Below are positions 3,154 to 57,872 of a DNA stretch of 64,000 nt, one piece after another; within the stretch, counting starts at the first letter, position 1; every line of letters starts with the position of its first letter. Position numbers and translations under genes: made by a program. Below the pieces are notes generated by a model. It was not told the DNA's origin and searched no databases. It saw only the letters and a list, made by a program, of their open reading frames with translations. The DNA is from Kondoa subrosea (lineage: Eukaryota). The DNA is taken from positions 682,001 through 746,000 of the forward strand of contig BCIN01000003.1 in NCBI GenBank assembly GCA_039545335.1, read 5' to 3'.

Positions 3154-6100
3154 TTAGCTTTTGACCTTCAGCGCTTCAATCACAGAACATCCAGCCTCCA
3201 CAAACTCCTCTAGACAATCCTCTAAGTTGCTCGACCGATAATCAAGTTTGTTGCCAGTAAATGCCAGACCATCGAAATGCAGATCGCGCAGTATCCTGAG
3301 CTTCTCTTCGTCAACTTTGAGCGGTACCTCGAACTGTACCTGTGAGAACTGGTGAGTGTGCGGACTACACACCGATAGATAAAGCGCACAGAAGGAGAGG
3401 TCAAAGCATGATCTTGCATAGTCTTGACCGAAATAACAGCTTCAGCTATTTGAGCCAAGTCTGAAAGGATATCGACAGTCTTGATCAGCAAGAGTGGACA
3501 GTCTGCCGCATTTGACGTAGTCTGATCAATGTATTCCACATGCCGCCAAAGGATTCGCCGGGAATGAAGTTGCTGTTCCACCGATACAAACAGAGTACGT
3601 TGTAAGCAATACGAATGTAATCTCGCGATCTGCTCCGGTTCTATTGCGAGACTACAGGACGATCAGCACATAGAGCCTAAAGGCCCGGAATGGCGTACCT
3701 TTGCTCAACAGGCAGACCCAGTCTAGCATGATTTATTTGACCAAGGTTCTTGATTGATAGCAATTGTTTGGCTGCTTCTATCACCGGCTGGACTTGCAAA
3801 AGATAGAAAGTGAGATTCGCTTCGCCGATCGAGACCATAAATAGATGATTGCCTTGACCGTCGAGGTGAAAGTAGAGAGGGTAGCGACCGATAGGTAAAC
3901 GAGCTTGGTCTGCAACATACTCAATAAGTCTTGATTAAGAAAACCCACAGGGCGGCCTACCTTGCGAGCGCAGCAACGGTCTCCGATGACTTTCCAAGCC
4001 TACTGCAACAGCTTTCCCTTCTATCTCATCCGCAATCATCTGAAGCGCACATTAGATTTTGATCCATTTGTCCAACGCATACCACTCACCAAAGACCTGA
4101 GCTTCAGGAAATAGCTTGTGTAATCACTACGAGTATTATTGAGCTCTTGGGCAGCTTGCAGGATCTTTCCTCCAACGTGCGTCGAGGTTGACTCAGTAGC
4201 AAAGAGCTTCAGTGAGCCCGTCTTCTCATCTATCTGAAGCTTGATGTAGTGTAGTGCATGGACGTGCACCAACAGATGACATGGACCGTCTGACACAGCA
4301 TTGCATCAAGTAGTGGTCAGTATTCGAAGTCATTGACCTACTCTGAGGTTGAATGATCTCCTGGTGCAGTATAGATGTAGCTAATTGAGAGCGAATCGAT
4401 TGCGTTATACTTCGACAATGCTTGTGTATACAAGCAAGGAACTGTTCTTCAAAAGTAGAGTCGATCATAGACTGTAAAGCAGCCATTAGCGCTTTTTTGT
4501 TGGAGGACTGCTTGGCCTGTTACCATTTCAGCATCTTGCGAAGATACTTCTAGATCTTCGGGCTGCCATTGCATTATCAGTTGCTTTGATTGACTAGTCG
4601 TATCGGCTTCTTCCAGACTGAGCGATTGCAAGATTGCAAGCGCGCCTTTGGCTTTAGCACAAGTTTGTATCGCAATCTTGATCTTCGAGCCGTTACTTGC
4701 AGGCACGGTAGATCCAGGGACAGCGGGCTTCTTAGTTCGAGGATTACTAACAGAGGAATCAGCATACGAGAATATATACTGAACGCTACATTCACAGCCA
4801 ATATTGCACTTCAAACGATTTTCGATCTCTTGCCATAGTGATAGCAAGATTCGATGACCAACCGCTCGATCGACCGAGTTTGAGTGCCTGTGAAAACGAA
4901 TTGGTGAGTAGAGCCTGGTGCCACAACACGGTTAAGCTCACCTGAGAATACAAACTTTCTATCTGGAGATTAATCGAAGTATCGCCTTTCTCAAAGCGTC
5001 AGCTTACATGTAGATATACAAGGGACTTCATACACTTACGAAGGAAGTTGAACACTCTGACAAGCGGATCTTTTGCCAATTTGTCCTTATTCATATGTTG
5101 TTCAGGTATTCGACCAGGTTGTGTTGCTTCATCGGCCAACAGCTCATTACCCATTGCTATCAATCGATCATGTAAAGGTCCTTCAACTTTGAATTGAGTA
5201 GAATCATCTTTCGACTTCTGCGATGCTGGGCTGAAGAGGAAAGCGATATCGAGTAAATGCCAAGCATCAGTAATTTCACCTCCGAGTACAGTGAAAGTCG
5301 CTTGGAATTGATTCTTGACCGTGAAGATCACTCGACCGTTTGCTGAACAGAATATAAAGAGTCAGACAAAGTATATTGTTGATTAGTATGGAACTGACCT
5401 ATTGTATAGCTTCTTATCCCATTTGGCAGACGATCCGATACTGCTAGTCTATAGCGAATAGCTTCGTTCGCTTCATGCAGGATATCGAGCACTTCAGCGT
5501 CCGGTACTTTCTCGGGCGCGGCAAACGTCGATTTAATGATTGCTGGTAGACGTTGGTAATTACCGGTTGTAAGTAGATCGAAAGCTGTAGGTAAGTCGTA
5601 ATTGGGAATGCTGGGGGAAGATGTCAAAGGTAATATTAGGTTAGCTTGAAGAGAAACCTCTACCTTGCTTGCTGAAGAGATTTATGATGCGCATCCAGGA
5701 CTTCCATTGACGAAGAAAGCTGGAAATTCTGCGTTTCCAGAAAAGTGATAATATTCTATGCTCTCCCAAGTCAGCACACTAGGCAAACTTTCAGCAAGCA
5801 TTCGTCTGACCATGCATTTCTGCAAAGCAGCTGAACTTCTTGACCAGCGAGCAATGACGGCCAAGCGAATGAGTCGTTTCCCAACAGTCGCAACATATTC
5901 GAGTATCAAACGTTTGCGCTCGAGATCCGAAGCAGACGGCAATCTAATGCACGAGAAGATGGGCACAAAGGAACAGAAAGACAGGTAAGCAGACCAACAC
6001 TTCAGCTAAGATTTGTAGATCAGAGAAAGCCTGTCCAGCTATGCGTTCAACGAGTACACCGAGCGGTACAAGATTGTGCTGAATGTTTGGCAAATCATCG

Positions 6101-6189
6101 TCCAAGGCGGGTGCCTCTTCTGGCTGAATGAATTCCTGTTTTGGCTCGTGGTATCCGTTGCTGGTCGAGCCATTGATGCCATTGGCCAT
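3154..6189 (-). CDS. MED14: Mediator subunit 14 (Rgr1), multi-exon
   Basis: NLVPLGVLVERIAGQAFSDL, ERKRLILEY...RLIRLAVIARWS and IPNYDLPTAFDLLTTGNYQRLP are typical of the Med14 N-terminal domain. ATG at 6189; 3' end approximate. Confidence 0.88.
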
Positions 6190-8144
6190 GAGACGGTCGA
6201 GCAGATGCAAGAGCAAGCTATATTATTTTCGTCGCAAGGTTGTAGACGAACCAATACCTCGATTATATCCAGCCCTGTATACACCGTGGAACTACTCTCT
6301 GCAAGCTTATATGCTCAAATCACCTGAATTCGCTGCCTTCCGAAGTGGAATCATGTTTTCTGTCAAATTTGTTGTTGAGACACACAGATACCCTCAGACT
6401 GTGTCTTGTCTGCTTCCCACTGACGATGTATATTCGCTATGTCGCATGCGCTTTGCTAGCCTCGATCAAGATCACATTGCATTCATGTCTCGGGTCGCCA
6501 AATTCACCTCCATTGGGCAAGCAGACTCTGATCTCTATGCGTGCACATCTTCCTGTGGAACAGATTAGTCAGTGCCCGATTGTATGTGTTGTCGTTCGAC
6601 GCGACTTAGTCTTCGACGCGACACTTTCACCACAACCACCGAAGTCCTCATGTAGTTATCATTACGATCAAGCTTCTCCTACCTTTTTCCATTTCTTGCA
6701 CTGCCTTCTAGTCTCACTACCAATGAAGCAAATCAATCACGACATCGCTGCTTGTATTCTCGCTTGTTTAGCAGCGGATCATCCAGCAGAGGCTAAATCC
6801 ACTTTGTACCAAGCATGTCTAGTCAACAAGATCTGGTATCTCTTAGCTCGACCTCTTATCTACCGTCGAATCGCAATCACTCATCAACCNAAGCGATTCT
6901 TCGAGAANATNAAGNNCTCNACANNTNNNTGTCANNTATTNCAAGAACTCGATTTCAGTAATATGGGCCTCTGTCCNCTACACTGTGGGCATACTTGGCA
7001 TGACTTGGTCGAAATATTGCCTCTCTGCCCAAATCTGAAGACGATTAAGTTTGGTGCTTTGTCGGGATATCACGCAGCTAGACTGCTGTGCAATTTGGCT
7101 CGCTACAATCCTGGCGTAAAAGATAGTGAGTTTCCGGGGACGACTTGATCAGCAGCAGCAGCATATTGAAGCTGCTGTTAAGTTTCGTTTGAACTGTTGT
7201 GCCCATCTGGTTTGATGGGTTATCAAAGAGTATGTTTTCTTTGCTCGATTCGTAGCACATCTTGACCCACTACTTCTAGCGCTGGGAATGGGTTGATTTC
7301 AATGAGTGAGTAAACCCTTCGTATCTCTGACAGTAGCCGAATTGATTTCTGTTGCCAGTCTTCAACCTCATCTGCACAATTGGCCAAATGTCGAGCTTCT
7401 CGACTTGGACATTCACATCAACAGTTCTCCTTCACCTCGCTATCAACCAGAAGGCTCGAAATTGACCAAGCTCGTTCTCGCTTAACCTCGCTTGGAACGC
7501 GATACTCTAGCAATGCTGTCACCATTCACCTCTCTTTCTGATCTTCGAATCTATCAACCTCATACTATCCTAGAGCCTCACGAGATCGTATCTTCCCTAG
7601 CTCATGCACCTCGGATCACATCGTTAACACTACATCTGGCACCAAGTCCAGCAAGCCAAATCACTCACGCGCTAGAGCTACTTCCAATGCTCACTTCGGG
7701 TGCTAGAGCATGTGAGCTTCTTAAGCTTTGTGCTTCACTGGAATATGTTGCTCATTGTTCAATTCATTACCGAACAGGTATAGAAATGAGGAAAGCTTTC
7801 AAGACATTATGGATTGCTTGTCCTACGGTGAAGAAATTGGAAATATGTGCTGCTATGATTGATGTTGAGGATTTATTGGTTGGTTTACCACTTCGTATTA
7901 CGCATCTCTCTGTTGGTCATTTTGGTGCGACTCAATCTGAAGCTGTCATGTAAGCTTAAGTCTTCTTTCTCTGTCTGTTCTCGTAAGCTTATGCTAGATC
8001 TATAGGAGAGGTATCGAGGTGTTGAAGAAACAAAGAGGATTAGGGTTGAAGAGGTTCAAGCTACATTTGAGGCATAGCTGGTCTGAAAACGAAGTGGAGA
8101 TGGTCAACTCAGCCTTTGCAAATTTAGGAGTGATATGCTGTCAT
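6074..8144. repeat. Direct repeat copy A (~2.07 kb): MED14 5' end, intergenic promoter and F-box-like gene
   Basis: Near-identical to 16038-18109 by direct comparison, including shared N positions. Confidence 0.95.
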
Positions 8145-8168
8145 CATGATGGGATACTACCACAATGA
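6723..8168 (+). pseudogene. F-box/LRR-like gene, disrupted copy
   Basis: F-box-like N-terminus (INHDIAACILACL...LYQACLVNKIWYLLARPLIYRRI). In-frame TAA at 7483-7485 where copy B has AAA (17448-17450). Last intron donor and last exon are missing because homology ends at ~8144. Confidence 0.75.
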
Positions 8169-8398
8169 GCAGCAGGCACGAAGCCTATAGCGATGCAGAC
8201 CATATGCCGGATCTTGTCAACCAAGAACCGTGACCTCAGCAAAACAAATACCTTCAAAGGGCTCTCTAATAGCCTCCGATAGATACCTTAAGAGCTTTCA
8301 GTCTACATAGCTTAGGTTAGGTTAGTCTTGAGTGGCTAGCAGATTAGCTCCGAAGCTGAATCCGGGGCATGACCAGATTTGCAAGTCTTGGCTTTAGC

Positions 8399-9051
8399 AT
8401 GGCCAGTACCTATTCGTACAATTCCAGGAGGGACCTGTATACTCTCCACGGTGCAAGAGATGCCAAAATCAAGGGGAAGCATTTGCGTATGCAACTGAAA
8501 GAAATGAGTGTGTTTGTCAACAATTGCCAGAGCAATTGTCGTATGTCGGGTGACTGGGGACCTATGAGAACATTTAGTATGTCGGAGGTAAGAGGTCTCT
8601 CATTTGCATTCTAGAAGGCTAATTTGTCGTTAGATGCGAGCATTGCACAGTATTTGATCTGGCTTGACAACTTGCAACTCCTTACTCAACTTTTGAATCT
8701 AGGAATCCTGGTCTGGATGGAAACATCTGAGTCTGTCAAGAGGGTATGCTCAATATCCTTAGATCCGCAACGCAATGCTAAATAGATTCCCACCCAGCAA
8801 CCTATACGCTTTGCCAACTCTAACAGAAATCATCTTCTATCTTTCATCGGCAAGCAGTACACTATGTCCCAGCTTATCTCGAGATTTGGTTGTGAGGATC
8901 CGAAACAGCTCGAATTCTCAAAAGTTTCGTTCTCAAGTGATGAGCAACATGGGTCAGTCGACCTTTGACGAAGCATCAGCTCTCTAACGTTTGTTACAGA
9001 GAAAATGAGGAGCCGCCTCCTGCTTATAAGGAGTGTCTTTTCAGTGTTTAG
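8399..9051 (+). CDS. Orphan spliced gene ending in a PPPAY (PPxY) motif
   Basis: Canonical GT-AG introns join YLIWLDNLQLL...SVKR | IPTQQPIRF...SDEQHG | ENEEPPPAYKECLFSV*. Start and 5' exons are uncertain. Confidence 0.45.
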
Positions 9052-9151
9052 TCTTGTGTTTGGGTAGATCTAGTTCGTTTGCAAATTTGCCATGAAATAT
9101 TTTGTAGCACTTGTATTTCTATGGTCTTAAGAACAACCAAGCACCAACATA

Positions 9152-10026
9152 ATGATTTCCTCGGTATTGGCTACAGTTTCAAATTTGAGGAGAAAGCCTA
9201 AACGAGATGAAGAAGGAGGTAAATATAGACTGACAAAGCAGAAGTTGCATATTGATTGTGTCGCAAGCTGCGTCGAGACCTACTACAGCTCCACCTTCAC
9301 CCATTATCCAGCTTGAGACTATTCGTCCTGCTTTCACTGGACTGCTTTTGCTCAAAACGGAAGAGATCCTAGATAACATCACTGAAAGGGTCGCAACAGA
9401 AGGAGAAGTGAAAGATCTGCTGGCAATGGTCAAGGAGGCTCAAACCGATGACGCTATCAGAACATACCTTGTCGATAATGTCGAGAAATCTTGGCTTCGC
9501 TTCTGGAGATCAGGAAAGGGAGAGAATGAAATCTTGGTTTACAGGGACGGAATGAAAGGATTGCAGAGAATGGTTGAAGAAGAAAACGAAGAGCAGATGC
9601 GATCATTTTTGGACGATAAGCAATACAAGGATGTTAGGAAATGGTCTACCGCTCTTGAATCTATCTGTGAGTGCATGCATTAGGCGTTGATTCCATTTGC
9701 CGACAGTGCGCTCAGATGAGAAAGAAGAAGAAGCTCGCAAGGAAAAGGCCGCAAGAAAAGACCGCAATAGCAAATCCGACAGCAACAAAATCAGCCTCTG
9801 CAATCTCCTCATCTTCGTCGGTATCGCCATTGCTGGTTACATTTTCATGCACACACAGAATACACTGAACAGAAAACAACAGAAAGAGATTGCTATGGGA
9901 AATTGGTATCAGCAATGTCTAGCTCAAGCATTACAGGCGGCGGCAATCAGAGGTGATAAGAATGCTAGTACGCATATGGGTGCAGATGAATGCGCCATGT
10001 ATAGAAACAATCCAACCGTTTCCTGA
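9152..10026 (+). CDS. Orphan protein: helical/charged region, one TM helix, short Cys-containing C-terminal tail
   Basis: Three exons join in frame (MISSVLATVSNLRRKPKRDEEG | AASRPTT...ALESI | ...KISLCNLLIFVGIAIAGYIFMH...PTVS*). No family recognised. Confidence 0.6.
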
Positions 10027-10079
10027 AAACTTCTAAATGCATAGTATATACAGCCGCTCTCAAAGGCCTTTGATCTCCT

Positions 10080-13000
10080 TCTAGAAACCAATTACCTTGC
10101 TAGCAAATCTACTGCCAACGGATATAGCATCAATACATGATCGGACAACTGTGCAGAGCGTGAGTGGTCATTCAGCAATATTTCGAAGTTGCGTACAAAC
10201 GAATCCTCGAATCCAGAAAAGCCTCGGAGCTTTTCTGTCACAATCGATGTCCAAGCTGCAATGTTTCTCGCCTGAATTTCGCCATCCAGCGCAATGTAGT
10301 TCGATATGGTTGGGAAGCTCAGCCTAGTTGCTCAGAAGATAAGTTTTGATAAAAGCGCAGCGCAATGCATGTCTGCTCACGGTGTAAAAGCATCGACTGT
10401 TTCGCTCCTCTTATCGGTATGTTCTGGCCGTTGATCAGAGAGCATCCGTAGCAGTACATTGACTAGCGTCGCTGCACTGCTAGACTCTTGCTTGAGTAGA
10501 TTAGGAAGCTGTTTCATGAAGCCTTAATGACAAAGTGATCAGATGAATACCAATTTGAATGGAATTATTGACGTACCAACTTTCCACAGAGCCATACGCA
10601 GCTCCTTGTCCGCGTTGAACTTCTTCGCAAACTGGTAGCCTTCATCGAGAACCGCCATAAGCTTCAATAGATCTGCTGGTGGTATTGTTGTGTAGACTTC
10701 CTCGTTTTGCAACAACTCGTGAGCCGTCTCGATCAGGAGGAGCTGCAGTACGCATTTGACTATAATTTGACGAAAGACCTTCTTGCGATCTGGTATCGGT
10801 TTGGAAGCCAAACGCTCGCTGTTCTGTCGTGGGCGTATTGGGATCCAGTGGCACTGGTGCTATAAAGCTAGGTTGCGCTATTTGTAGGCGTCAGCTCAGT
10901 CTACATTGACAGTGACAAATAACTTACATTGCTCTACATTTTCCGCATCACTTGCTGTTAGAGGCATGCGTAGACGCTCGTCGAAGAGCTGATTAGCTGT
11001 TGTTGTATGAAATAGAGTTATAAAGGTTGAGACAATTTTCTCCCACAAGCTGGGACTGAGCTTCTTGACATTCTTCTCCAGAAGCTGTTGCAGACATGAT
11101 GTGCCTATTCTGGCCAGTGTATCGTTCTCTGCATCGACTATTAGTATGGATCCTAGAATTGTGACATCTAATATACCTTGGCAGATGCATTCGCACAACA
11201 GATCCAGCAGTTTGTCTAGCATTCTCGCCAATACATCGAAGTAGTGAGTGAAAAGATCGATAAGGTTGCGCAGAGCTTGAATCATGGTTGTGGACAGCCA
11301 GACGCTCATGTCTTCGTGTGTGCTGAATCTTGAAACATCCGACCGTGATCTTAGGACGGCAAATATAGGGAAAAGGACTTCTTTGCAAACCGAATCCCAG
11401 AAGTAAGCTGGGAAAGAGCGACCATGTACTTTGAGAGTTTCAAAAAGGTAATCCAGGGCTCTGAAGAGCTCATCAGCCATTTGTATTTTGCACAAACCAT
11501 GTAGTCACTGACCTCTTTCGTACTTCTAGGTCTTCACCATTCATGATAATGTCATAGAAGCCAAAAAGTACAGGGAACCAGTATTTGATCCTGAACGCAA
11601 GGTTAATTTAGAGGCCAGCTGGAACAATCTCGACTTACATAGGATCGTCAACAGGTTGGGTGTCAACTTTAGCTACTTGAAGGTTCGGCTGACTTAGTGG
11701 ACATTCAGGACATGCCAGCATTTGCGGTATGAGACCTTTGAGCATCTCAATAGCATGCAAACTGATTTTTTGNNNNNNNNNNNNNNNNNNNNNNNNNNNN
11801 NNNNNNNNNNNNNNNNNNNNNNNNNNNNNNNNNNNNNNNNNNNNNNNNNNNNNNNNNNNNNNNNNNNNNNNNNNNNNNNNNNNNNNNNNNNNNNNNNNNN
11901 NNNNNNNNNNNNNNNNNNNNNNNNNNNNNNNNNNNNNNNNNNNNNNNNNNNNNNNNNNNNNNNNNNNNNNNNNNNNNNNNNNNNNNNNNNNNNNNNNNNN
12001 NNNNNNNNNNNNNNNNNNNNNNNNNNNNNNNNNNNNNNNNNNNNNNNNNNNNNNNNNNNNNNNNNNNNNNNNNNNNNNNNNNNNNNNNNNNNNNNNNNNN
12101 NNNNNNNNNNNNNNNNNNNNNNNNNNNNNNNNNNNNNNNNNNNNNNNNNNNNNNNNNNNNNNNNNNNNNNNNNNNNNNNNNNNNNNNNNNNNNNNNNNNN
12201 NNNNNNNNNNNNNNNNNNNNNNNNNNNACAGCAGACCTGATTGAAGTGTTCTCCCAAGATTGCCCAGATGTTTGACCATTCCAAACGAATACGGTTCATG
12301 TTGTAGTAGGAAATCTCGACCAATTTTTGCAAACAGAATGTTCTTGGCTGCTCTGTCAATCCGGATGACCGAATTTCTTCCCACGAAACATCCGCAAGCG
12401 CTCGTACGAAATCGACAATCGCGGTCTAAACATCATTAGCTTGAATAATTTAGTCTTAGCTATAAAGCTCACTCCAGAAAGACTATGACTGGTTGAAAAG
12501 ATGCGATCGGCAGCTATTGTAATTTGCGTTGACCGTGTTTCGTTGGCAACTTCATCGGTCGGTCTGCTCATTGTGCTCGCTCGTCTGCCACTGCCTTTCC
12601 GAGGACCTTGACCGCTGTAAAGTCATGTATCAGCGCGATAGGTAGTCTGGAATCTGGACCTACGGCCGCCTTGTCAGGTCAGCTCCAGACTTTGCATCAG
12701 CCCCGGATGAGATCAATTGGAACCGTTCAAGTTGGCTGACACATGTCATGACTTCGCGCCAAGACGTCTTCAAGTAGTTTCCGTCGGCGATAGCTACCTC
12801 GAGCATAGTCTTGATAGCTTCTACATTCTTTGTCCGCATCTCGCCAAAGTTGTTGTGGAAGGTGAATTTGGCAAGAGTGGTGACGAAAGCATTTCTTTCG
12901 AGCTCGAGATCAAAGAGACATACAATCTTGATTGCTTGCTTGAATCCTTCGAGACTAAGGTTGACCATCTCAATATCTTCCGAATCTTGCAGAGGGCCAG

Positions 13001-16000
13001 AAATTCCTGCAAGAATCGGCATCCAAGCAATAGCAAACATAGGTATGACATGTTCTATCGATGAAGCAGCAAAGAATTGCTCTGTCGATCGAGCTGCTGC
13101 TCCTCTTCTTTGACCGCGCAACATGGTTCGGAACAAAGCTTCTGTCTTCGATGCCATACCCTCTGATTCAAGAACGTATGCTTCGCGTTGTAAATCACGA
13201 CCGACTCCAGCTAGAGCGCCAGCAATGCCTGTTGTTGGTTGTATTCCGGTCAGATCTATTTCATCCTTCATCCGAATCTCGGAAGCAACGATTTCGTCAA
13301 AGATACCGGTGAGCATTTCTTCCAACACATCCTGACCATCGTTGATACCTCGATTGTTTTTTATGAATTCAGCTTTAGACATGCGATTTTTGACCTGAGG
13401 ACTGTGCTGATCTGTATTCAGCATAATAGTAGAGTAAGAGAGAATATAGGCGGTATCTGATAGAATTGATCAGACTATGGCACATAATCGCAAGACCAAA
13501 CATACCTGCGTTGACGAAAACCGTAGGGTTGCCGCCAATATACCGGTCGGCAAACTTCAGCATGAAGCGATCGATCTTTTACGATTCGCCAGGTAGACGG
13601 AAAGATTGTAAGAAAGTACGGAGAGCATCAGTGAAGCGGGTGTTGGTGAAATCCATCATATCGACGAAAGCATGCATGGTCGCTACGTTCTCGTCATCCC
13701 TGTCATACGAGCATCAAATGAGACCAGCCAACGACGACATGCGAATGATTGTGCCTACCCTTCTCCTAGGTATTCACCGATCATGGCCTTATTCAGACCA
13801 TCAGCTTGCAATAGGAAACGAGCGACATCTTTTGGTTCAGCAGATCGAATGAAGCCATGTTCGATAAGGAATTTAACACCCTGATCGAAAAACATGAAAT
13901 TTCCGAGCGAAGTGCTTCAGCCGTACTCACCTTTTTCGGCTTGAAGTTGAACTTCTTTATTCCTTCAAGTAAAGTAGTCTTTCGCTGTTTAGCATTCTCA
14001 AACCGACTGGGATCATCGCCAATATCAGGAGTAGCAGTTCCACTGTTTCCATTAGCAGCATGATGTAAATCGGTCTCGCTTGAACTGAATCGTCTATCTT
14101 CGCTGAATCGATTCATATCGTCTGCTGGTAAGGCTAGGGCAGCAGAGAGTTCCGTTGTAGATCCACTAGTAGGCAAAGAACCTTTTCCAGCCCAGCTGAC
14201 CAAAGAACGTAAGGTGAAAACAAGCGCTTCTAGTGATTGTCGCTTGAGTCTCGTTTCATATGGCATGTTGCCGTAGACGTGCGTTTCAGCTGTCCAGGAA
14301 GAAAGATTGGCGGGATTTGGAGAGTTTGGAGCAGGTGGAGCAGTAGCGAAAGATCCAGCTGAAGGAGGTGCTGTAATCAAGTCATTGCCTGGATGTACAG
14401 AAGGAATAGTTGAAGTCGTGTAGTGAGTTGTAACGGTACGAGAGACGATATTAATCAACCTTTCGTAAACGTTCTCAAGAGAACTTCGATCGCAATCATA
14501 GTTGATGTAGATTTCGACCAAAGCTTGGGGATCATGACACAGCCGAGACATGACTGCGAGTAGAATGGATTGGTGTTTGACTGTTGAGCTCTTGATTTCA
14601 AGGATAGGTAGGAAGATTTCATTGAGCAGGACTTCAATTTCCTTCTGTTGATGTCAATATCATTAACTATCAGTGCCGAAATAAAGAAAGCAAGTCGTCT
14701 ACTGACTTTCAGCTTATTCCGCATTCCGCTGAGTACACGCCAGAAGATCTCGCAACTCAATTCAAAAACGTTGATGACTGGACTAAGACCATTTCTGCTC
14801 AAGCTGAGACATAGATATTGCTTGATGGCGACAATGAAAGGCGTCTGTTCTTCTCCCGAAGCGAAATGGATGATGACAGTTGGATCGACGAAAAGAGGCA
14901 TATAATTATGAAGGATAGTAAGAATGAGATGGAGTGAGAGTAATTCGGATCGCATAGCGTGAGAAGATCGCGTTCTGATTCACTTCCAAGAGGCTTCATG
15001 GATAGCTTGCATAGTGCTCGGAAGACGAGGAAAGCATCTTTGACATGCAGATCTTGAGTACTCATCGATGCCAAGTTTTTGCGATCCGGTAAGTTTTCAA
15101 AATCGTTCTTCTTCTCAAACGTTTGCCTATAGCGCTTCGTTAGCAGGTTTCAAAGTCTGTCCGAGGACTTACCTTTGCAAGGTAATCTTTTCCGTCAAAG
15201 CTGTACCATTCACTGTACCGTTCACAGCAGGAATCTCTTCTTCTGCCTTGTCGACTTTATCAGCTTCTTTTTCTTTTTGAACCTCTTCGGCGTCTTCTTG
15301 ATCTGGTCGAACGGTTTCCGTGCTTCCTCTTGCTTTGTCTTCTTGTTCAGCAGTACCTTTCTCCTCCTCTCCTTCAGAGCTTTACCCTCTACTTTTACTT
15401 CATCCACTCCGTCAGCCTTCTGTGTTGTAGTAGCAGGCAAAGGAGCGACTTTATTGTTCAACCCAAATCTACCAACAACAGCTCCCACAATTTGACCCAA
15501 AGCACCTTGAGTGACCATCTGATTTTGTTGACCTTTAGAGAGTAGAAAGACGTTATAGACTGTTCTGACTGCTTTGAGTAAACTAGATTGATGTACTGGT
15601 ACGGTAGAACTGAGTATGAGTGATAGTAGAGCAGATAAGATATGTAAGTTGACTGCATCTGGACCAGTTTGTTTTGGTATTGAAGTCATTGAACTTGATT
15701 GCGAATCAGAACTGGAAGAGGAAGAGGAAGTATCGATAAAACAGTTGCAAATGGTAGAAACTACTTCTTCTGCTAATTCTGGATCTGAAGTATTGAACAC
15801 TGCTGCAGAAGCTGATGCGATGGATGATCTTCTACTACTACTACTTGTTTCGTTAAGATCTTCAGTTGAGGTTGAAGGAGTTGGTCCGGTTTGTTGTGAA
15901 GCGAAACCAGCATGAGAAACTAGTTTGCCTATACAATCCAATGCAGCGATAATCATGGGGTATGAACGAGTTTCGCATGCTAGTTTTAATGGCGTGAGGT

Positions 16001-16036
16001 TTTAACCGTGGATCCAAAGAAGTAGGGTTTGGTGAT
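10080..16036 (-). pseudogene. SEC7: Inverted, 5'- and 3'-truncated SEC7 copy with introns retained
   Basis: Collinear with 51727-57712. Lesions: +1 nt near 16000, -1 nt near 15370, 4-nt deletion near 14965, CAA>TAA at 13579-13581 in the Sec7 [12 protein letters not shown] motif. Final exon absent. Confidence 0.92.
11773..12228. other. Assembly gap (run of N) inside the SEC7 copy
   Basis: Flanks map to ~55527 and ~56021 of the intact SEC7, so the gap length is roughly as expected. Confidence 0.98.
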
Positions 16037-16037
16037 C

Positions 16038-18109
16038 TTGTGCTGAATGTTTGGTAAATCATCGTCCAAGGCGGCTGCCTTTTCTGGCTGAATGAGAATC
16101 TGTTTCGGCTCGTGGTATCCGTTGCTTGTCGAGCCATTGATCCCATTGGCCAGGAGACCAAGATGAGACGGTCGAGCACAAGCAAGAGCAAGCTATATTT
16201 TCGTCGCAAGGTTGTAGACGAACCAATACCTCGATTATATCCAGCCCCGTATACACCGTGGAACAACTCTCTGCAAGCTTATATGCTCAAAATCACCTGA
16301 ATTCGCTGCCTTCCGAAGCGGAATCATGTTTTCTGTCAAATTTGTTGTTGAGACACACAGATACCCTCAGACTGTGTCTTGTCTGCTTCCCACTGACGAT
16401 GTATATTCGCTATGTCGCATGCGCTTTGCTAGCCTCGATCAAGATCACATTGCATTCATGTCTCGGGTCGCCAAATTCACCTCCATTGGGCAAGCAGACT
16501 CTGATCTCTATGCGTGCACATCTTCCTGTGGAACAGATTAGTCAGTGCCCGATTGTATGTGTTGTCGTTCGACGCGACTTAATCTCCGACGCGACACTTT
16601 CACCACAACCACCGAAGTCCTCATGTAGTTATCATTACGATCAAGCTTCTCCTACCTTTTTCCATTTCTTGCACTGCCTTCTAGTCTCACTGCCGATGAA
16701 GCAAATTAATCACGACATCGCTGCTTGTATTCTCGCTTGTTTAGCAGCGGATCATCCAGCAGAGGCTAAATCCACTTTGTACCAAGCATGTCTAGTCAAC
16801 AAGATCTGGTATCTCTTAGCTCGACCTCTTATCTACCGTCGAATCGCAATCACTCATCAACCNAAGCGATTCTTCGAGAANATNAAGNNCTCNACANNTN
16901 NNTGTCANNTATTNCAAGAACTCGATTTCAGTAATATGGGCCTCTGTCCTCTACACTGTGGGCATACTTGGCATGACTTGGTCGAAATATTGCCTCTCTG
17001 CCCAAATCTGAAGACGATTAAGTTTGGTGCTTTGTCGGGATATCACGCAGCTAGACTGCTGTGCACTTTGGCTCGCTATAATCCTGGCGTGAAAGATAGT
17101 GAGTTTTAAATCGACTCAAGAAATAGCAGACTGAAGCTTCTGTTAAGTTTCGTTTGAACTGTTGTGCCCATCTGGTTTGATGGGTTATCAAAGAGTATGC
17201 TTTCTTTGCTTGATTTGTGGCACATTTTGACCCACTACGTCTAGCGCTGGGAATGGGTTGATTTCAATGAGTAAGTGAAGCCTTCGTATCTCTGACAGTA
17301 GCCGAATTGATTTCTGTTGCCAGTCTTCAACCTCATCTGCACAATTGGCCAAACGTCGAGCTCCTCGACTTGGACATTCACATCAACAGTTCTCCTTCAC
17401 CTCGCTATCAACCGGAAGGCTCGAAATTGACCAAGCTCGTTCTCGCTAAACCTCGCTTGCAATCCGATACTCTAGCAATGCTGTCACCATTCAGCTCTCT
17501 TTCTGATCTTCGAATCTATCAACCTCACACTATTCTAGAGCCTCACGAGATCGTATCTTCCCTAGCTCATGCACCTAGGATCACATCGTTAACACTACAT
17601 CTGGCACCAAGTCCAGCAAGCCAAATCACTCACGCGCTAGAGCTACTTCCAATGCTCACTTCGGGTGCTAGAGCATGTGAGCTTCTTAAGCTTTGTGCTT
17701 CACTGGAATATGTTGCTCATTGTTCAATTCATTACCGAACAGGTATAGAAATGAGGAAAGCTTTCAAGACATTATGGATTGCTTGTCCTGCGGTGAAGAA
17801 ATTGGAAATATGTGCTGCTATGATTGATGTTGAGGATTTATTGGTTGGTTTACCACTTCGTATTACGCATCTCTCTGTTGGTCATTTTGGTGCGACTCAA
17901 TCTGAAGCTGTCATGTAAGCTTAAGTCTTCTTTCTCTGTCTGTTCTCTTAAGCTGATACCAGATATATAGGAGAGGCATCGAGGTATTGAAGAAACAAAG
18001 AGGATTAGGGTTGAAGAGGTTCAAGTTACATGTGAGGCATAGCTGGTCTGAAGACGAAGTGGAGATGGTCAACTCAGCCTTTGCGAATCTAGGAGTTGTG
18101 AGCTGTCAT
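16038..18109. repeat. Direct repeat copy B
   Basis: Matches 6074-8144; the MED14 fragment (16038-16170) is degenerate and has lost its ATG. Confidence 0.95.
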
Positions 18110-51139: not shown

Positions 51140-54100
51140 ATGAGCTCTCAAAATGGTCAGGTCGAGCTGTCCGAGGATATCGAGCAACCTACACCAACAG
51201 AAGAGGGTCCTTTATCCACCTCATCTGGTAGTGCTGCTGTACCAGAGATCATAGTCAACGGGCAGGAAGATAAAGCGGTAGCAGTTCCAGAGAATCAAGA
51301 CGTGAAAGACTTACCGCCTTTACCACAATCTCCTGCTGTGCCTACATCTAATGCAGCAGATAAGAGCTTGCCAGTTGAGAAGCCCAAGTTGAATCGCGCA
51401 GAAACGGACGTGCCTTTCGAATCTGTTTCTTTGGACGAATCAAGAGGCAGTACACCTCAACATGAGCCATCTACTGTAAGCCCAGCACCAGCAAGGCCGC
51501 AGAAGGGTATCCCTTCTTTACCTCCATCACCTGCTACCTCTTCTTCAAGACCCCGCTCAGATACTGCTTCTACAAGTCGCACAAGTATAACGGACGGATC
51601 TAGACCAGCTCCTCTACTTTCTGGTGTTCTCATCATCGCATCATTGGAGAATATATTGAGCTCTAAAGAAGCCAAGAAAAATGTACCATTGAAAGAAGCT
51701 ACTACTAAAGCTTTGGATGCACTCAAATCGCCAAACCCTACTTCTCTGGATCCACGGTTAATCTTTACGCCATTGAAATTGGCATGCGAAACTCGTTCAT
51801 ACCCTATGATTATCGCTGCATTGGATTGTATAGGCAAACTAGTTTCTCATGCTGGTTTCGCTTCACAACAAACCGGACCAACTCCCTCGACCTCAACTGA
51901 AGATCTGAACGAAACGAATAGTAGTAGTAGAAGATCATCTATCGCATCAGCTTCTGCAGCAGTGTTCAATACTTCTGATCCAGAATTAGCAGAAGAAGTA
52001 GTTTCTACCATTTGCAATTGTTTTATCGATACTTCCTCTTCCTCTTCCAGTTCTGATTCGCAATCAAGTTCAATGACTTCAATACCAAAACAAAGCGGTC
52101 CAGATGCAGTCAACTTACATATCCTATCTGCTCTATTATCACTCATACTCAGTTCTACCGTACCAGTACATCAATCTAGTTTACTCAAAGCAGTCAGAAC
52201 AGTCTATAACGTCTTCCTACTTTCTAAAGGTCAACAAAATCAAATGGTAGCTCAAGGTGCTTTAGGTCAAATTGTGGGAGCTGTTTTTGGTAGAGTTGGG
52301 TTGAACAACAAAGTCGCTCCTTTGCCTGCTACTACAACAAAGAAGGCTGATGGAATGGACGAAGTAAAAGTAGAGGAGAAAGGTCCGGATGAGAAGGAGG
52401 AGAAAGGTACTGCTGAACAAGAAGACAAAGCAAGAGGAAGTACGGAAACTGTTCGACCGGATCAAGAGGTCATTGAAGATGTCGAGAAAGAAGCTGAGAA
52501 GGTCGAGAAAGCAGAAGAAGAGACACCTGCAGTGAACGGTACAGTAGATGGTACAGCTTCGACGGAAAAGATTACCTTGTAAGTCTCCCTCGGTCATACT
52601 TAGAAATCTGCTAACGAAGCGCTATAGGCAAACGTTTGAGAAGAAGAACGATTTTGAAAACTTACCGGATCGCGAAAACTTGGCATCAATGAGTACTCAA
52701 GATCTGCATGTCAAAGATGCTTTCCTCGTCTTCCGAGCGCTATGCAAGCTATCCATGAAACCTCTCGGAAGCGAATCGGAACGAGATCTTCGTTCTCACG
52801 CTATGCGATCCAAATTACTCTCACTCCATCTCATTCTTACTATTCTTCATAATTATATGCCTCTTTTCGTCGATCCCACTGTCATCATCCATTCCGCTTC
52901 AAGAGAAGAACAAACACCTTTCATTGTCGCCATCAAGCAGTATTTATGTCTCAGCTTGAGCAGAAATGGTTTAAGCCCGGTCATCAATGTTTTCGAATTG
53001 AGTTGCGAGATCTTCTGGCGTGTACTCAGCGGAATGCGGAACAAGCTGAAAGTTAGTGGACGCCTTGCTTTTTAGTTCAGTACTGATAGCCATTGATACT
53101 GACATCAACAGAAGGAAATTGAAGTCCTGCTCAATGAAATCTTCCTACCTATCCTTGAAATGAAGAGCTCAACAGTCAAACAGAAATCCATTCTACTCGC
53201 AGTCATGTCTCGGCTGTGTCATGATCCCCAAGCTTTGGTCGAAATCTACATCAACTATGATTGCGATCGAAGTTCTCTTGACAACGTTTACGAAAGGTTG
53301 ATTAATATCGTCTCTCGTANCGNNACAACNCACTANACGACTTCAACNATTCCTTCTGTACATCCAGGCAATGACTTGATTACAGCACCTCCTTCAGCTG
53401 GNTCNTTCGCTACTGCTCCACCNGCTCCAAACTCTCCAAATCCCGCCAATCTTTCTTCCTGGACAGCTGAAACGCACGTCTACGGCAACATGCCATATGA
53501 AACGAGACTCAAGCGACAATCACTAGAAGCGCTTGTTTTCACCTTACGTTCTTTAGTCAGCTGGGCTGGAAAAGGTTCTTTGCCTACCAGTGGATCTACA
53601 ACGGAACTCTCTGCTGCCCTAGCCTTACCAGCAGACGATATGAATCGATTCAGCGAAGATCGACGATTCAGTTCAAGCGAGACCGATTTACATCATGCTG
53701 CTAATGGGAACAGTGGAACTGCGACTCCTGATATTGGTGATGATCCCAGTCGGTTTGAGAATGCTAAACAGCGAAAGACTACTTTGCTTGAAGGAATAAA
53801 GAAGTTCAACTTCAAGCCGAAAAAGGTGAGTTTGGCTGAAGCAGTTCGCTCGGAAATTTCATGCGTGTCGATCAGGGTGTCAAATTTCTTATCGAACATG
53901 GCTTTATTCGATCTGCTGAACCAAAAGATGTTGCTCGTTTCCTATTGCAAGCTGATGGTCTGAACAAGGCTATGATCGGTGAATACCTAGGAGAAGGGTA
54001 GGCACAGTCATTTCGCATTTTGTGGTGGCTGGTCTCATTTCATGCTCGTATGACAGGGATGACGAGAACGTAGCGACCATGCATGCTTTCGTCGATATGA

Positions 54101-57100
54101 TGGATTTCACCAACACCCGCTTCACTGATGCTCTTCGTACTTTCTTACAATCGTTCCGTCTACCTGGGGAATCGCAAAAGATTGATCGCTTCATGCTGAA
54201 ATTTGCCGACCGGTATATTGGCGGCAATCCTACGGTTTTCGTCAACGCAGGTATGTTTGGTCTTGCGATTATTTACCATAGTCTGATCGGTTCCATCAGA
54301 TACCGCCTATATTCTCTCCTACTCTACTATTATGCTGAATACAGATCAGCATAGTCCTCAGGTCAAAAATCGCATGTCTAAAGCTGAATTCATAAAGAAC
54401 AATCGAGGCATCAACGATGGTCAGGATGTGCCGGAAGAAGTGCTCACCGGTATCTTCGACGAAATCGTTGCTTCCGAGATTCGGATGAAGGATGAAATAG
54501 ATCTGACCGGAATACAACCAACAACAGGCATTGCTGGCGCTCTAGCTGGAGTTGGTCGTGATTTGCAACGAGAAGCATACGTCCTGGAATCAGAGGGTAT
54601 GGCATCCAAAACAGAAGCTTTGTTCCGAACCATGTTGCGCGGCCAAAGAAGAGGAGCTGCAGCGCGACCAACAGAGCAATTCTTTGCTGCTTCGTCGATA
54701 GAACATGTCAGACCTATGTTTGCAATTGCTTGGATGCCAATTCTTGCAGGAATTTCTGGTCCTCTGCAAGATTCAGAAGATATCGAGATGGTCAACCTAA
54801 GTCTCGAAGGATTCAAGCAAGCAATCAAGATTGTATGTCTCTTTGATCTCGAGCTGGAAAGAAATGCTTTCGTCACCACACTTGCCAAATTTACTTTCCT
54901 GAACAACTTTGGTGAGATGCGGACAAAGAATGTAGAAGCTATCAAGACTATGCTCGAAGTGGCTATCGTCGACGGAAACTACTTGAAGACGTCTTGGCGC
55001 GAAGTCATGACATGTGTCAGCCAACTTGAACGGTTCCAATTGTTCTCATCCGGGGCTGATGCAAAGTCTGGAGCTGACCTGACAAGGCGGCCGTAGGTCC
55101 AAATTTCAGACTACGTATCGCGCTGATACATGGCTTTGCAGCGGGCAAGGTCCTCGTAAAGGCAGTGGCAGACGAGCGAGCACAATGAGCAGACCGACCG
55201 ATGAAGTCGCCAACGAAACGCGGTCAACGCAAATTACAATAGCTGCCGATCGCATCTTTTCAACCAGTCATAGTCTATCAGGAGTGAGTTTTATGGGAGA
55301 CTAGAGTATTCAAGCTAATGACTTTCAGACTGCGATTGTCGATTTCGTTCGAGCGCTGGCGGACGTATCATGGGAGGAAATTCGGTCATCTGGATTGACA
55401 GAGCAGCCAAGAACCTTCTGTCTGCAGAAACTGGTCGAGATTTCCTACTACAACATGAACCGTATTCGTTTGGAATGGTCAAACATCTGGGCAATCTTGG
55501 GAGAACACTTCAATCAGGTCTGCTGTCACACAAATCTGAAAGTCAGCTTTTTCGCCCTCGATTCACTTCGGCAATTGGCTTCGCGCTTTTTAGAAAAGGA
55601 NGAGCTGGCCCATTTCAAGTTTCAGAAAGACTTCTTGAAGCCTTTCGAATACGCCATGATCCATAACAACAACCCAGACGTGCGAGATATGGTAGGTCTG
55701 ACTCGAGACAGCTTAGCATGTTCTCATGCGTTACCAGATTTTGCAATGCTTCCGACAAATGATCTTGGCTCGTGTGAACAATCTCAGATCTGGCTGGCGC
55801 ACGATGTTTGGTGTCTTCTCAGCGGCTTCAAAAGTCATGGCTGGTAAGTAAAGCTAACACGTGTTGTTCGCCTCTAATGCCATGACTAGAGCGAGTCGCA
55901 AGTCAAGCATTCGACATGGTGAAAGATCTCAACAGAGACTATTTCTCTCGCATAATTGTCAGCGGATCATTCGCAGACCTTGCAGTCTGTATCACCGACT
56001 TCTGCAAGATCAACAAGTATCAAAAAATCAGTTTGCATGCTATTGAGATGCTCAAAGGTCTCATACCGCAAATGCTGGCATGTCCTGAATGTCCACTAAG
56101 TCAGCCGAACCTTCAAGTAGCTGAAGTTGACACCCAACCTGTTGACGATCCTATGTAGGTCGAGATTGTTTCAGCTGGCCTCTGCATTAACCTTGGCTTT
56201 CAGGATCAAATACTGGTTCCCTGTACTTTTTGGCTTCTATGACATTATCATGAATGGTGAAGACCTAGAAGTACGAAAGAGGTCAGTGACTACATGGATT
56301 GTTCAGCCGACGAATGGCTTATTAGTTCTGCAGAGCCCTGGATTACCTCTTTGAAACCCTCAAAGTTCATGGTCGCTCTTTCCCAGCTTACTTCTGGGAT
56401 TCGGTCTGCAAAGAAGTCCTCTTCCCTATTTTTGCTGTGTTGAGATCACGGTCGGACGTTTCAAGATTCAGCACGCACGAAGACATGAGCGTCTGGCTGT
56501 CCACAACCATGATTCAAGCTCTGCGCAACCTTATCGATCTCTTCACTCACTACTTCGATGTATTGGCAAGAATGCTAGACAAACTGCTGGATCTGTTGTG
56601 CGAATGCATCTGCCAAGGTATATTAGATGTCACAGTTCTAAGATCCATCCTAATACTCGGTACAGAGAACGATACACTGGCTCGAATAGGCACGTCATGT
56701 CTGCAACAGCTTCTAGAGAAGAATGTCAAGAAACTCAGTCCCAGCTTATGGGAGAAGATTGTCTCAACCTTTATAACTTTATTCCATACAACAACAGCTA
56801 ATCAGCTCTTCGACGAGCGACTACGCATGCCTCTTACAGCAAGTGATGCGGAAAATGTAGAGCAATGCAAGTTATTTTTCACTTTCACGGTAGACAGAGC
56901 TGACGACTGCAAATAGCACAACCTAGCTTCATAGCACCGGTACCTCTAGATCCTAACACGCCAACGACGGAACAGCGAGCGTTTGGCTTTCATCCGATAC
57001 CAGATCGCAAGAAGGTCTTCCGCCAAATTATAGTCAAATGTGTGTTACAGCTCCTGCTGATCGAGACGGCACACGAGCTATTGCAAAACGAGGAAGTGTA

Positions 57101-57872
57101 CACAACAATACCACCAGCAGATCTATTAAAGCTTATGGCTGTCCTCGATGAGAGCTACCAATTCGCGAAGAAGTTCAACGCGGACAAGGAGCTCCGTATG
57201 GCCCTGTGGAAAGTTGGTAAGTTGCCGATTCCATTCAATTGATATTTGTCTGATCACTCTGTCTTTAAGGCTTCATGAAACAGCTTCCTAATTTGCTCAA
57301 GCAAGAGTCTAGCAGCGCAGCGACATTGGTCAATGTACTGCTACGGATGCTCAATGATCAACGGCCAGAACATACCGATAAGAGGAGCGAAACAGTCGAT
57401 GCTTTTACACCGTGAGCGGACATGTATTGCGCTGTGCTATTCTCAGAACTTATCTCCTGAGCAACTAGGTTGGGCTTGCAAATCATTTCGAATTATATCG
57501 CGCTGGATGGCGAGACTCAGGCGAGAAACATTGCAGCTTGGACACCGGTTGTGACAGAAGTGCTCCAAGGCTTTTCTGGATTCGAGGATTCGTTTGTACG
57601 TGTCTTCGATATATCGCTGAGTGATCTCTCACACTCTGCACAGTTATCCGATCATGTATCGATGCTATATCCGCTGGCAGTAGATTTGCTAGCAAGAGAA
57701 TTGGTGCCAGAAGTACGGGAGTCTTTAAGAGGGTAGGCAGGAGTCTTCTTCTTTGAACTCATTCTGATTGCTTGGCAGGTTGTTTTATCGCATTGGTGCT
57801 GTCAAGGGATTAATTTCTGTAGAGGATTCAGGTTCGCCAATTTCGAATGGCGCTCACGAGCCAGAGGATTAG
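51140..57872 (+). CDS. SEC7: Sec7/BIG-family Arf guanine nucleotide exchange factor (DCB-HUS-Sec7-HDS)
   Basis: [19 protein letters not shown] box [60 protein letters not shown]. Confidence 0.97.

Follow-up and report, generated by a model that had tools for sequence, protein, structure and literature searches.

New genes are known to originate as chimeras, which can arise by segmental or tandem duplication combined with promoter capture; jingwei and Sdic of Drosophila are the textbook cases. Replication-based complex rearrangements of the FoSTeS/MMBIR type generate duplications with inverted templated insertions. To our knowledge, fungal chimeras in which both parents, the junction and a signature of selection are found in one place are uncommon.

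The parental protein of the chimera described here belongs with the large Arf-GEFs represented by yeast Sec7. According to the available excerpts of two reports, residues 203-2009 of yeast Sec7, which lack the N-terminal region, serve as a full-length-like dimeric construct, and a dimer-interface mutant complements sec7-delta with slight temperature sensitivity (PMC4764562, PMC10927569). Excerpts of the second report place six HDS4 dimer-interface residues at positions 1975-2001 of 2009 and describe the removal of the whole HDS4 domain as inviable (PMC10927569).

The locus lies in a window of 64,000 nt of Kondoa subrosea (GCA_039545335.1, contig BCIN01000003.1, positions 682,001-746,000, forward strand), and all positions given below are those of the window (Table 1). 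As in jingwei and Sdic, the promoter and 5' end of one gene precede a piece of another, the parents are nearby, and the partner supplies 5' coding sequence. The locus differs from this type in that the leader comes from an alternative frame of the partner's first exon, in that it is fungal and now a pseudogene, and in that its transcription is putative. The copy resembles an unprocessed pseudogene in its introns, truncation, frameshifts and nonsense codon; however, its sequence is far from neutral (dN/dS 0.08, 14/14 splice sites). The direct duplication flanking an inverted insert from 36 kb off, with short imperfect microhomology at the junction, is reminiscent of FoSTeS/MMBIR. The 37-residue leader, which occupies the +1 frame of the first MED14 exon and whose translation is putative, is reminiscent of overprinting, or alternative-frame recruitment. 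The DCB, HUS, Sec7 and HDS regions of Sec7/BIG-type large Arf-GEFs are present in the copy in the same order. Compared with the yeast 203-2009 construct, the copy is additionally short of about 40 residues in the DCB region and of ~42 at the C-terminal end. The missing DCB residues and, by analogy with yeast as far as the excerpts go, the inviability upon HDS4 removal would count against a functional truncated product.

We propose, as a reading with an even chance of being correct, that a single microhomology-mediated complex duplication gave rise to a truncated SEC7 paralogue, which captured the MED14/neighbour promoter, was selected during about 90% of its existence and has been inactivated recently. 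One event would have copied in tandem a 2.07-kb unit composed of the MED14 5' end, the bidirectional promoter and gene X, with the unique 1.9-kb spacer and an inverted internal SEC7 piece of ~6 kb between the tandem copies. The SEC7 piece, without a promoter or start codon of its own, would have been placed under the duplicated promoter of MED14, where its frame matched that of an ATG within MED14 exon 1 (+1 frame). The predicted product is a truncated Sec7/BIG-type Arf-GEF with a new 37-residue leader, minus the first ~195 and the last ~42 residues; part of the HDS4 dimer interface is probably lost with the latter, as judged by pattern match and not by alignment. Since the duplication (dS about 0.2), purifying selection would have kept the expressed protein for ~90% of the time, and four frameshifts and a nonsense codon would have been acquired in its recent death. 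We infer the single event, the use of the MED14 promoter and the role of ATG 16146 as the start codon. A more specific version is held more tentatively, at somewhat below even chances: a template-switched gene for a Golgi Arf-GEF, probably monomeric, with the MED14 promoter, an overprinted leader and a first ATG exposed by the 11-nt insertion, selected for ~90% of its life. We speculate that the SEC7 frame was translated at a higher rate once this insertion had destroyed the ATG of MED14.

Table 1 Features of the chimeric locus and of its SEC7 parent, in window positions
Feature	Position	Strand	Description
Repeat copy A	6074..8144	+	continuous with intact MED14 (minus strand, below 6190)
Unique spacer, copy A to SEC7 3' break	8145..10077	.	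plus-strand ORFs 9234-9683 and 9691-10026
SEC7 copy, inverted internal fragment with introns kept	10078..16036	-	parent codons ~196-1918; cut at both ends
Assembly gap, 455 N	11773..12227	.	inside SEC7 fragment; hides parent codons ~1369-1500
+1 insertion	16003	-	TTAAAACC vs parent TTAATC; frame broken 12 codons after junction
MED14 exon 1/SEC7 codon ~196 junction	16036..16040	-	SEC7 homology from 16036-16040, MED14-side homology from 16038
Repeat copy B	16038..18109	+	first 116 nt of MED14 CDS (minus), bidirectional intergenic region, gene X (plus)
First ATG of chimeric frame	16144..16146	-	+1 frame relative to MED14, in MED14 exon 1; ORF 15862-16278 (-)
11-nt insertion splitting former MED14 ATG in copy B	16152..16162	-	from A/B alignment; inside zero-difference read contig
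Parent SEC7	51140..57872	+	18 exons, 17 introns (45-60 nt), 1956 codons, no frameshift or internal stop

The two repeat copies have decayed in complementary ways. MED14 is intact only at copy A, and the second ORF of gene X is uninterrupted only at copy B, which fits a tandem duplication with an insert. In copy A, the MED14 start is the ATG at about 6188-6190 (minus strand), the sole in-frame ATG past the upstream stop (ORF 5944-6222), and the two following minus-strand ORFs match Pfam Med14 (E 5e-8 and 2e-17). Gene X of copy A carries a TAA at 7483-7485, and its C-terminus differs after 8144; the identity of gene X is limited to weak F-box/LRR leads (Pfam E 0.17; Atlas scores 0.89-0.92). The intergenic region of copy B contains a TATA-like motif, ATATAAT, at 16234-16240, and no other ATG occurs on the minus strand between this motif and ATG 16146. 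The MED14 start region reads CGTCTCATGGCCAATGG in copy A and CGTCTCAT-CTTGGTCTCCT-GGCCAATGG in copy B, so that the splitting of the MED14 start by an 11-nt insertion, noted in the sequence-only reading, is present. The nearest candidate for a source of these 11 nt, a 14-mer with one mismatch at 59317-59330, has dissimilar flanks and is probably a chance match. The duplicated MED14/neighbour promoter unit is the only sequence in the right orientation upstream of the SEC7 fragment. By divergence, the A/B repeat and the SEC7 copy are of comparable age: copies A and B differ at 9/100 and 16/171 positions at the repeat edges and at 13/92 in an intron-like stretch, a level like that of the SEC7 introns.

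The junction unites segments of two parent genes that are both still present (Pfam Med14; Pfam on SEC7), each at most 50 kb from the chimera. The ATG at 16146-16144 on the minus strand opens a reading frame that begins MGSMARQ, with the 37-residue leader. As had been claimed from the letters of the window, this ATG is off the MED14 frame and reads across the junction into the SEC7 frame. The frame is continuous up to the +1 at 16003, and the present-day chimeric ORF stops at TGA 15862-15864. The chance of an in-frame fusion had been put at one in three; it is about two in three, because two of the three minus-strand frames are open across the junction, and by itself the in-frame fusion could be due to chance. 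In the parent copy, the leader frame is likewise open (ORF 6039-6314). Counted by eye, six of the eight changed codons alter the amino acid in the leader's own frame, with no sign of constraint, and four of eight are synonymous in the frame of MED14. Short imperfect microhomology (GAT..TTG..GTGC) is present at this junction, the one of three junctions that was compared against both parents.

Read support at the junction had been named beforehand as a check, and the junction was bridged without difference in both runs of one sample. The read evidence consists of Logan contigs from two runs (X1 and X2); their reads are possibly the assembly's own and not independent of the assembly. A 299-nt contig matches 15927-16225 in both runs (2/2) with 0 differences and 0 gaps, and spans the junction at ~16036-16040, the 11-nt insertion and the +1 at 16003. 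Its depth is 135 and 42.7 in the two runs, compared to 152 and 52.5 for the unique spacer, a single-copy contig at 8100-10221, which places the junction in the organism's DNA at single-copy depth. The -1 lesion lies inside a contig at 15339-15576 and the +1 at 10802 inside one at 10408-10956, both with zero differences and zero gaps and at a depth equal to that of the unique spacer contig. The copy-specific contigs in X1 have depths of 135-154, relative to 152 for the unique spacer; therefore, a third near-identical SEC7 copy is unlikely. The assembly is locally imperfect, with the 455-N gap, scattered N and near-identical tracts. The scattered N fall at the same places in copies A and B, read contigs enter the gap by 174 and 107 nt (loose ends at 11772 and 12228), and one X2 contig disagrees with the window at 10 positions in 14202-14656.

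The parent SEC7 contains Pfam DCB, HUS, Sec7 and HDS, and ORFs of the copy match DCB (E 1.9e-8), HUS (1.9e-16) and Sec7 (2.5e-23). The spliced alignment of the copy to the parent spans codons 196-1368 and 1501-1914, and the HDS part between them falls in the N gap. The N-terminal loss had been described as ~195 residues of mostly low complexity. The extent holds, with the 5' breakpoint at parent residue ~196 of 1956, but the first ~40 DCB residues are gone as well (position 13 of the Pfam DCB profile corresponds to residue ~168), and these residues are conserved (outgroup identity 0.44). At the other end, the last ~42 residues are absent from the copy. The break of the frame had been attributed to a +1 near 16000, which is found at 16003; the copy also has a -1 at 15369, a -4 at 14966, another +1 at 10802 and a nonsense codon in the Sec7 domain, CAA>TAA at 13581 (TAA 13579-13581, Q940*, FRLPGES*KIDR). 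The frame through the catalytic Sec7 domain is interrupted by TAA 13581, the four frameshifts break the reading frame of the copy further, and the SEC7 copy is dead at present. A second stop, TAA 10092-10094, is located near the 3' end of the copy, and an in-frame +6 at 15275-15280. The 455-N gap, the truncated 3' end and four additional disabling lesions were absent from the earlier description. Relatives of the two spacer ORFs were not detected; for ORF 9234-9683, none of 147 candidates scored, and Pfam gave no significant match.

Over 1578 codons, the copy and the parent differ with a dS of 0.206 (196.5 synonymous differences at 1090.7 sites) and a dN of 0.0165 (59.5 non-synonymous differences at 3643.3 sites), giving a dN/dS of 0.08. 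The differences are distributed 44/23/189 over the codon positions. Exons differ at 256 of 4755 positions (5.4%) and introns at 100 of 719 (13.9%), which is 2.6 times the exon level, and GT/AG is kept in 14/14 covered introns, 3 of the 17 parent introns being uncovered. A copy neutral since birth would be expected to have equal codon positions, a dN/dS near 0.5-1 and, by our own estimate, ~390 non-synonymous differences, and the observed pattern does not agree with this. Among 675 deeply conserved codons, 15 are changed in the copy (0.96% per non-synonymous site) and 82 have synonymous-only changes (18% per synonymous site); therefore, the neutral phase takes up no more than roughly one tenth of the lineage of the copy. 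Judged by its substitutions, the SEC7 fragment was strongly constrained at the protein level. The dN/dS, the codon positions and the intact splice sites suggest that, over most of its existence, the copy was translated into a useful protein.

An apparently neutral pattern is confined to the 68 codons that precede the 3' break, with 13 non-synonymous differences at 153.7 sites and a dN/dS of 0.39, compared to 0.01-0.11 in the structured domains. Since 17 outgroup SEC7s conserve this near-neutral segment (Fisher p 6e-7), its relaxation suggests that the 3' cut is old and not recent. Local pS is equally high in the constrained segments and in the relaxed C-terminal segment. Of 53 codons with amino acid changes, 24 are copy-derived, 2 parent-derived and 27 unpolarised, and against the closest relative ORF the copy- and parent-derived changes stand at 6 to 1; by this polarisation, the protein changes are mostly on the copy lineage. 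Because only two sequences are compared, the constraint is not placeable strictly after the formation of the junction, and its action after the junction would follow from the single-event argument together with the old 3' truncation. Substitutions are symmetric (C>T 67 vs T>C 63, G>A 65 vs A>G 46; 241 transitions and 115 transversions), and repeat-induced point mutation is therefore not their cause. Gene conversion wipes out synonymous and non-synonymous differences alike and therefore cannot yield a ratio of 0.08. Of the sequence-only reading, the chimeric architecture (MED14 5' end and promoter, alternative-frame leader, SEC7 in frame), with its junction in reads, stands, and the constraint on the SEC7 part supports it; the single-lesion break does not stand, and the description of the N-terminal loss was incomplete.

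The low dN/dS and the kept splice sites would be equally expected if the fragment were the relic of a full-length functional SEC7 paralogue with its own promoter, in which recent deletions of the ends made the junction and killed the gene, and the ATG is coincidental. An in-frame fusion would arise by chance in about two of three such cases, and the numerous recent lesions befit a decaying locus; the locus would then record a lineage-specific SEC7 duplication followed by loss. We regard this explanation as unlikely, although it is the foremost of the rivals. It requires at least three events instead of one, and the last 68 codons have been near-neutral for about the whole divergence time though they are conserved in the 17 outgroups. 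Remnants of the SEC7 5' or 3' end or flanks were not found near the fragment, and the complementary decay of copies A and B matches a tandem duplication with an insert. A clearly lower probability is given to an ordinary unprocessed pseudogene, duplication debris that was never expressed as protein and whose chimeric frame is open by chance. The truncation of both ends, the five disabling lesions and the unconstrained leader agree with such an origin, which is strongly disfavoured by the dN/dS over 1578 codons and the codon positions, and also by the excess of intron over exon divergence, the 14 intact splice pairs and the 15 changes in 675 conserved codons, a pattern that neither gene conversion nor repeat-induced point mutation explains.

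Low dN/dS combined with recent lesions is also what would result if the SEC7 and MED14/X segments came from a hybrid partner or an introgressed lineage, were functional there and were rearranged on arrival, and the four of eight changed MED14-fragment codons that are synonymous in the MED14 frame (by eye) point the same way. We consider such a diverged outside origin quite improbable: both parent loci lie within 50 kb, as expected of a local rearrangement, the near-neutral C-terminal segment is unexpected from a recently functional donor gene, and the 64-kb window holds no further diverged duplicate. The least probable explanation by our estimate is an assembly or library artefact, with the junction or the lesions absent from the organism. 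The 455-N gap, the N matching in A and B, the near-identical tracts and the runs from one sample would allow for it, whereas zero-difference contigs cover the junction, the 11-nt insertion, the +1, the -1 and the lesion at 10802 at spacer-like depth.

If the single-duplication reading is true, a large multi-domain SEC7 of essential type can spawn a shortened paralogue that is long kept by selection, despite the loss of its own promoter, its N-terminus and the C-terminal residues where the yeast HDS4 interface lies according to the excerpts of the yeast report (PMC10927569). The first exon of a neighbouring gene, read in an alternative frame, could then become the N-terminus of a new protein. 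A substitution test should precede any classification of a pseudogene as neutral debris, and, in the more specific version, the birth, life and death of a chimeric gene would be recorded completely in one 64-kb window.

No relative found is near enough to carry the duplication. The closest ones are ORFs of a single Logan contig of 91,632 nt, among which P0121 is 89% identical to the ORF of the copy and 91% identical to the parent, and P0001 has 73% identity.

The window belongs to a fungal scaffold, and the best named relative of its SEC7 gene is from Mixia osmundae (57% identity). Comparison of the window with itself reveals two repeat systems. Copies A (6074-8144) and B (16038-18109) of a unit containing the 5' end of MED14, a bidirectional promoter and the neighboring gene X are directly oriented and 95.5% identical (blastn). 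The parent SEC7 gene has an inverted partial copy, in which 51727-55526 corresponds to 16036-12228 (93.6%) and 56021-57713 to 11772-10078 (91.2%). The order along the window is MED14 (minus strand), copy A, a unique 1.9-kb spacer, the SEC7 fragment (minus strand), copy B, and a transhydrogenase gene; the parent SEC7 is located another 36 kb along. The two pieces of the fragment are separated by a run of 455 N (11773-12227), which is an assembly gap, since read contigs enter it by 174 and 107 nt. The flanking genes are of usual housekeeping types, according to Pfam. The spacer (8145-10077) contains plus-strand ORFs 9234-9683 and 9691-10026, the second with a hydrophobic stretch; a search for relatives and a Pfam family of these ORFs found none.

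The parent SEC7 was modeled using a custom spliced protein-to-DNA aligner guided by the Mixia protein. The gene (51140-57872) is composed of 18 exons and 17 GT-AG introns of 45-60 nt, and its 1956 codons contain no frameshift or internal stop in the spliced alignment. The lesions of the copy were identified by aligning the parent protein back onto it. The copy spans parent codons ~196 to ~1914-1918; the last exon and the tail of the penultimate exon are thus absent from it. Position 13 of the Pfam DCB profile corresponds to parent residue ~168, so the 5' cut costs ~40 DCB residues in addition to the low-complexity N-terminus. The sequence-only reading had the breakpoint remove mostly that N-terminus and keep most of the DCB region. 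The +1 insertion that it described as breaking the frame near 16000 is present at 16003, together with other frameshifts and a nonsense codon. Past the TAA at 10092-10094, a further 55 codons of this frame, reaching into the spacer, are free of stops (9924-10091, minus strand), and the protein of the copy could have ended at 9924-9926 before this TAA arose.

Neighboring genes in the window and lesions of the SEC7 copy
Feature	Position	Strand	Basis
NAD(P) transhydrogenase	18768-22220	-	Pfam
Class I tRNA synthetase	32783-36449	+	Pfam
Nop56/58-type snoRNP protein, head-to-head with parent SEC7	49122-50687	-	Pfam
+1 frameshift	16003	-	Parent-protein alignment
-1 frameshift	15369	-	Parent-protein alignment
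In-frame +6	15275-15280	-	Parent-protein alignment
-4 frameshift	14966	-	Parent-protein alignment
CAA>TAA in Sec7 domain (FRLPGES*KIDR)	13581	-	Parent-protein alignment
+1 frameshift	10802	-	Parent-protein alignment
TAA, 15 nt short of the end of clear homology	10092-10094	-	Parent-protein alignment

The SEC7 copy is unlike debris in its pattern of divergence from the parent. The two differ at 256 of 4755 exon sites (5.4%) and 100 of 719 intron sites (13.9%). Nei-Gojobori counts over 1578 gap-free codons are 196.5 synonymous differences per 1090.7 sites and 59.5 non-synonymous differences per 3643.3 sites (dS 0.206, dN 0.0165, dN/dS 0.08), and the three codon positions carry 44, 23, and 189 differences. 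We estimate that a copy neutral since its birth would have ~390 non-synonymous differences. Each of the 14 introns present in the copy retains its GT and AG; the remaining three of the 17 are in the gap or past the break. Repeat-induced point mutation was ruled out by the symmetry of the substitutions (C>T 67, T>C 63, G>A 65, A>G 46). The low dN/dS cannot come from gene conversion by the parent either, because conversion erases both classes of difference.

Among 53 codons with amino acid changes, most of the 17 outgroups have the parent state at 24 and the copy state at two, and 27 are unpolarised. The closest relative, ORF P0121, is 89% identical to the copy and 91% to the parent, and in one exon compared with it, six of seven differences are copy-derived. 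The protein changes lie mostly on the branch of the copy. The parent residue is shared by 14 or more of the 17 outgroups at 675 codons. The copy has changed 15 of these (0.96% per non-synonymous site), and the same set contains 82 synonymous-only changes (18% per synonymous site). Together, these results indicate constraint on the copy over roughly nine tenths of its branch, followed by decay over about 1% divergence, enough for the five lesions seen; the timing is indirect, as only two sequences are compared.

Selection was uneven along the copy. The dN/dS is 0.01-0.11 across all structured segments, where constraint is strong, and 0.24 in the disordered linker. The 68 codons next to the 3' break show almost no constraint (dN/dS 0.39, with 13 non-synonymous differences per 153.7 sites), and compared with the remainder of the gene this excess has a Fisher p of 6e-7. 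This segment is not inherently fast-evolving: its identity across the 17 outgroups is 0.41, higher than in either linker or in what is left of the DCB. The pattern reads as an old 3' truncation, after which the stump would have drifted once the C-terminal module was cut, with the remainder still selected. Between copies A and B, 9 of 100 positions differ beside the junction, 16 of 171 at the opposite edge, and 13 of 92 within a stretch resembling an intron, and these unconverted parts are probably similar in age to the SEC7 copy. The long intervening tracts have zero differences, and some of them have twice the depth; they look like conversion. The two copies have decayed in complementary fashion. 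MED14 is intact beside copy A only, and the second ORF of the plus-strand gene X is unbroken in copy B only (17448-17450, corresponding to TAA 7483-7485 in copy A); the gene X C-terminus in copy A diverges after 8144 (18109 in copy B). The gene X model is built from ORFs and weak F-box/LRR leads.

The minus-strand sequence is CGTCTCAT-CTTGGTCTCCT-GGCCAATGGGATCAATGGCT in copy B and CGTCTCATGGCCAATGGCATCAATGGCT in copy A, and the 11 extra bases (16152-16162) split the MED14 start in copy B, as the sequence-only reading had it. The copy A ATG is likely the MED14 start, because it is the sole in-frame ATG past the upstream stop of ORF 5944-6222, and the two ORFs that follow on this strand hit Pfam Med14 (E 5e-8 and 2e-17). 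ORF translation bears out that the ATG at 16146-16144, out of frame for MED14, reads across the junction: MGSMARQ...QTFSTR is followed by 11 residues in the SEC7 frame. SEC7 homology begins at 16036-16040 and copy A homology at 16038. Of the three minus-strand frames, two run through the junction without a stop, which replaces the earlier one-in-three prior and makes the in-frame fusion alone unremarkable. The +1 insertion (TTAAAACC compared with TTAATC) shifts the chimeric frame, and the ORF ends today at 15862-15864. The 11-nt insertion with three flanking bases recurs with one mismatch as TCTTGATCTCCTGG at 59317-59330 (minus strand; chance expectation 0.02), where the flanks lack similarity; templating from this site is possible.

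We hypothesize that a single event, the tandem duplication of a 2.07-kb unit with a templated insert (spacer and inverted SEC7), formed the locus, because the old 3' cut, the age of repeat A/B, and the complementary decay all fit. The SEC7/MED14 junction has short imperfect microhomology. Drosophila chimeric genes and template-switching rearrangements are comparable kinds. The SEC7 fragment is without its own promoter or start codon, and the sole correctly oriented upstream sequence is the duplicated MED14/X intergenic unit, which over 16246-16546 is nearly identical to copy A (three differences in 300 nt). A TATA-like ATATAAT is present in this unit at 16234-16240; between this motif and 16146 the minus strand contains no ATG. 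The fragment was nevertheless apparently selected as a protein, and we infer that the captured MED14/X promoter drove an mRNA in which, once the 11 nt had been inserted, the first AUG is that of the SEC7 frame. The MED14 AUG frame of copy B before the insertion has a stop at 15986; this AUG would have opened that frame, leaving the SEC7 frame reliant on leaky scanning. Loss of the native ATG may then, plausibly, have switched the chimeric gene on, as the sequence-only reading suggested. The features described in that reading are confirmed and its interpretation is supported in part. The locus is best described as a chimeric duplicate gene, now a pseudogene, with an unusually clear mark of past function.

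A full-length second SEC7 paralogue, trimmed later, would account for the dN/dS equally well; we consider it unlikely, since it requires additional events and old drift at the C-terminus is not among its predictions. A pseudogene that was never functional is at odds with every substitution test, which makes it improbable. Still less credit is due to a diverged outside donor, as both parents are local and the C-terminal drift does not fit.

An assembly or library artefact is the most improbable explanation, contradicted by read contigs, though contigs and assembly are not independent. In each of two DNA runs, from one sample of one study and possibly the assembly's own source, a 299-nt contig spans 15927-16225 over the junction with no differences or gaps, at depths of 135 and 42.7 compared to 152 and 52.5 for a unique spacer contig. 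The -1 at 15369 and the +1 at 10802 are likewise spanned by contigs without differences (15339-15576 and 10408-10956, respectively). The reads thus contain the junction and these lesions with single-copy coverage, which excludes a scaffolding error. The assembly is imperfect in this region: a contig of the second run disagrees with the window at 10 positions within 14202-14656, and some of the near-identical tracts may therefore be blends. The tracts 53227-53700 and 14100-14530, and both flanks of the 11773-12227 gap, have 0-2% divergence, compared to 5-14% otherwise in the duplicate, and represent either gene conversion between the inverted copies or collapsed assembly. Tracts 16347-16546 and 16747-17046 in copy B are also near-identical, and here too conversion or collapse may be the cause. 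Single N are scattered at matching relative positions of copies A and B (6890-6941, 16863-16914) in a tract otherwise 100% identical, and also in the parent SEC7 at 53320-53423 and 55601, where the copy has real letters. They look like ambiguous consensus where reads of two copies pile up.

The predicted product of the chimeric gene is a Sec7-type Arf-GEF lacking the N-terminal ~195 and last ~42 residues. Residues 203-2009 of yeast Sec7 behave as a full-length-like dimer, and dimerisation is mediated by HDS4 (PMC4764562). Six interface residues are located within 1975-2001 of 2009; an interface mutant complements sec7-delta with slight temperature sensitivity, and loss of the whole HDS4 is inviable (PMC10927569). 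By unaligned pattern matching, the region missing from the copy would include two or three of these six positions. Therefore, a monomeric SEC7 paralogue is a reasonable guess.
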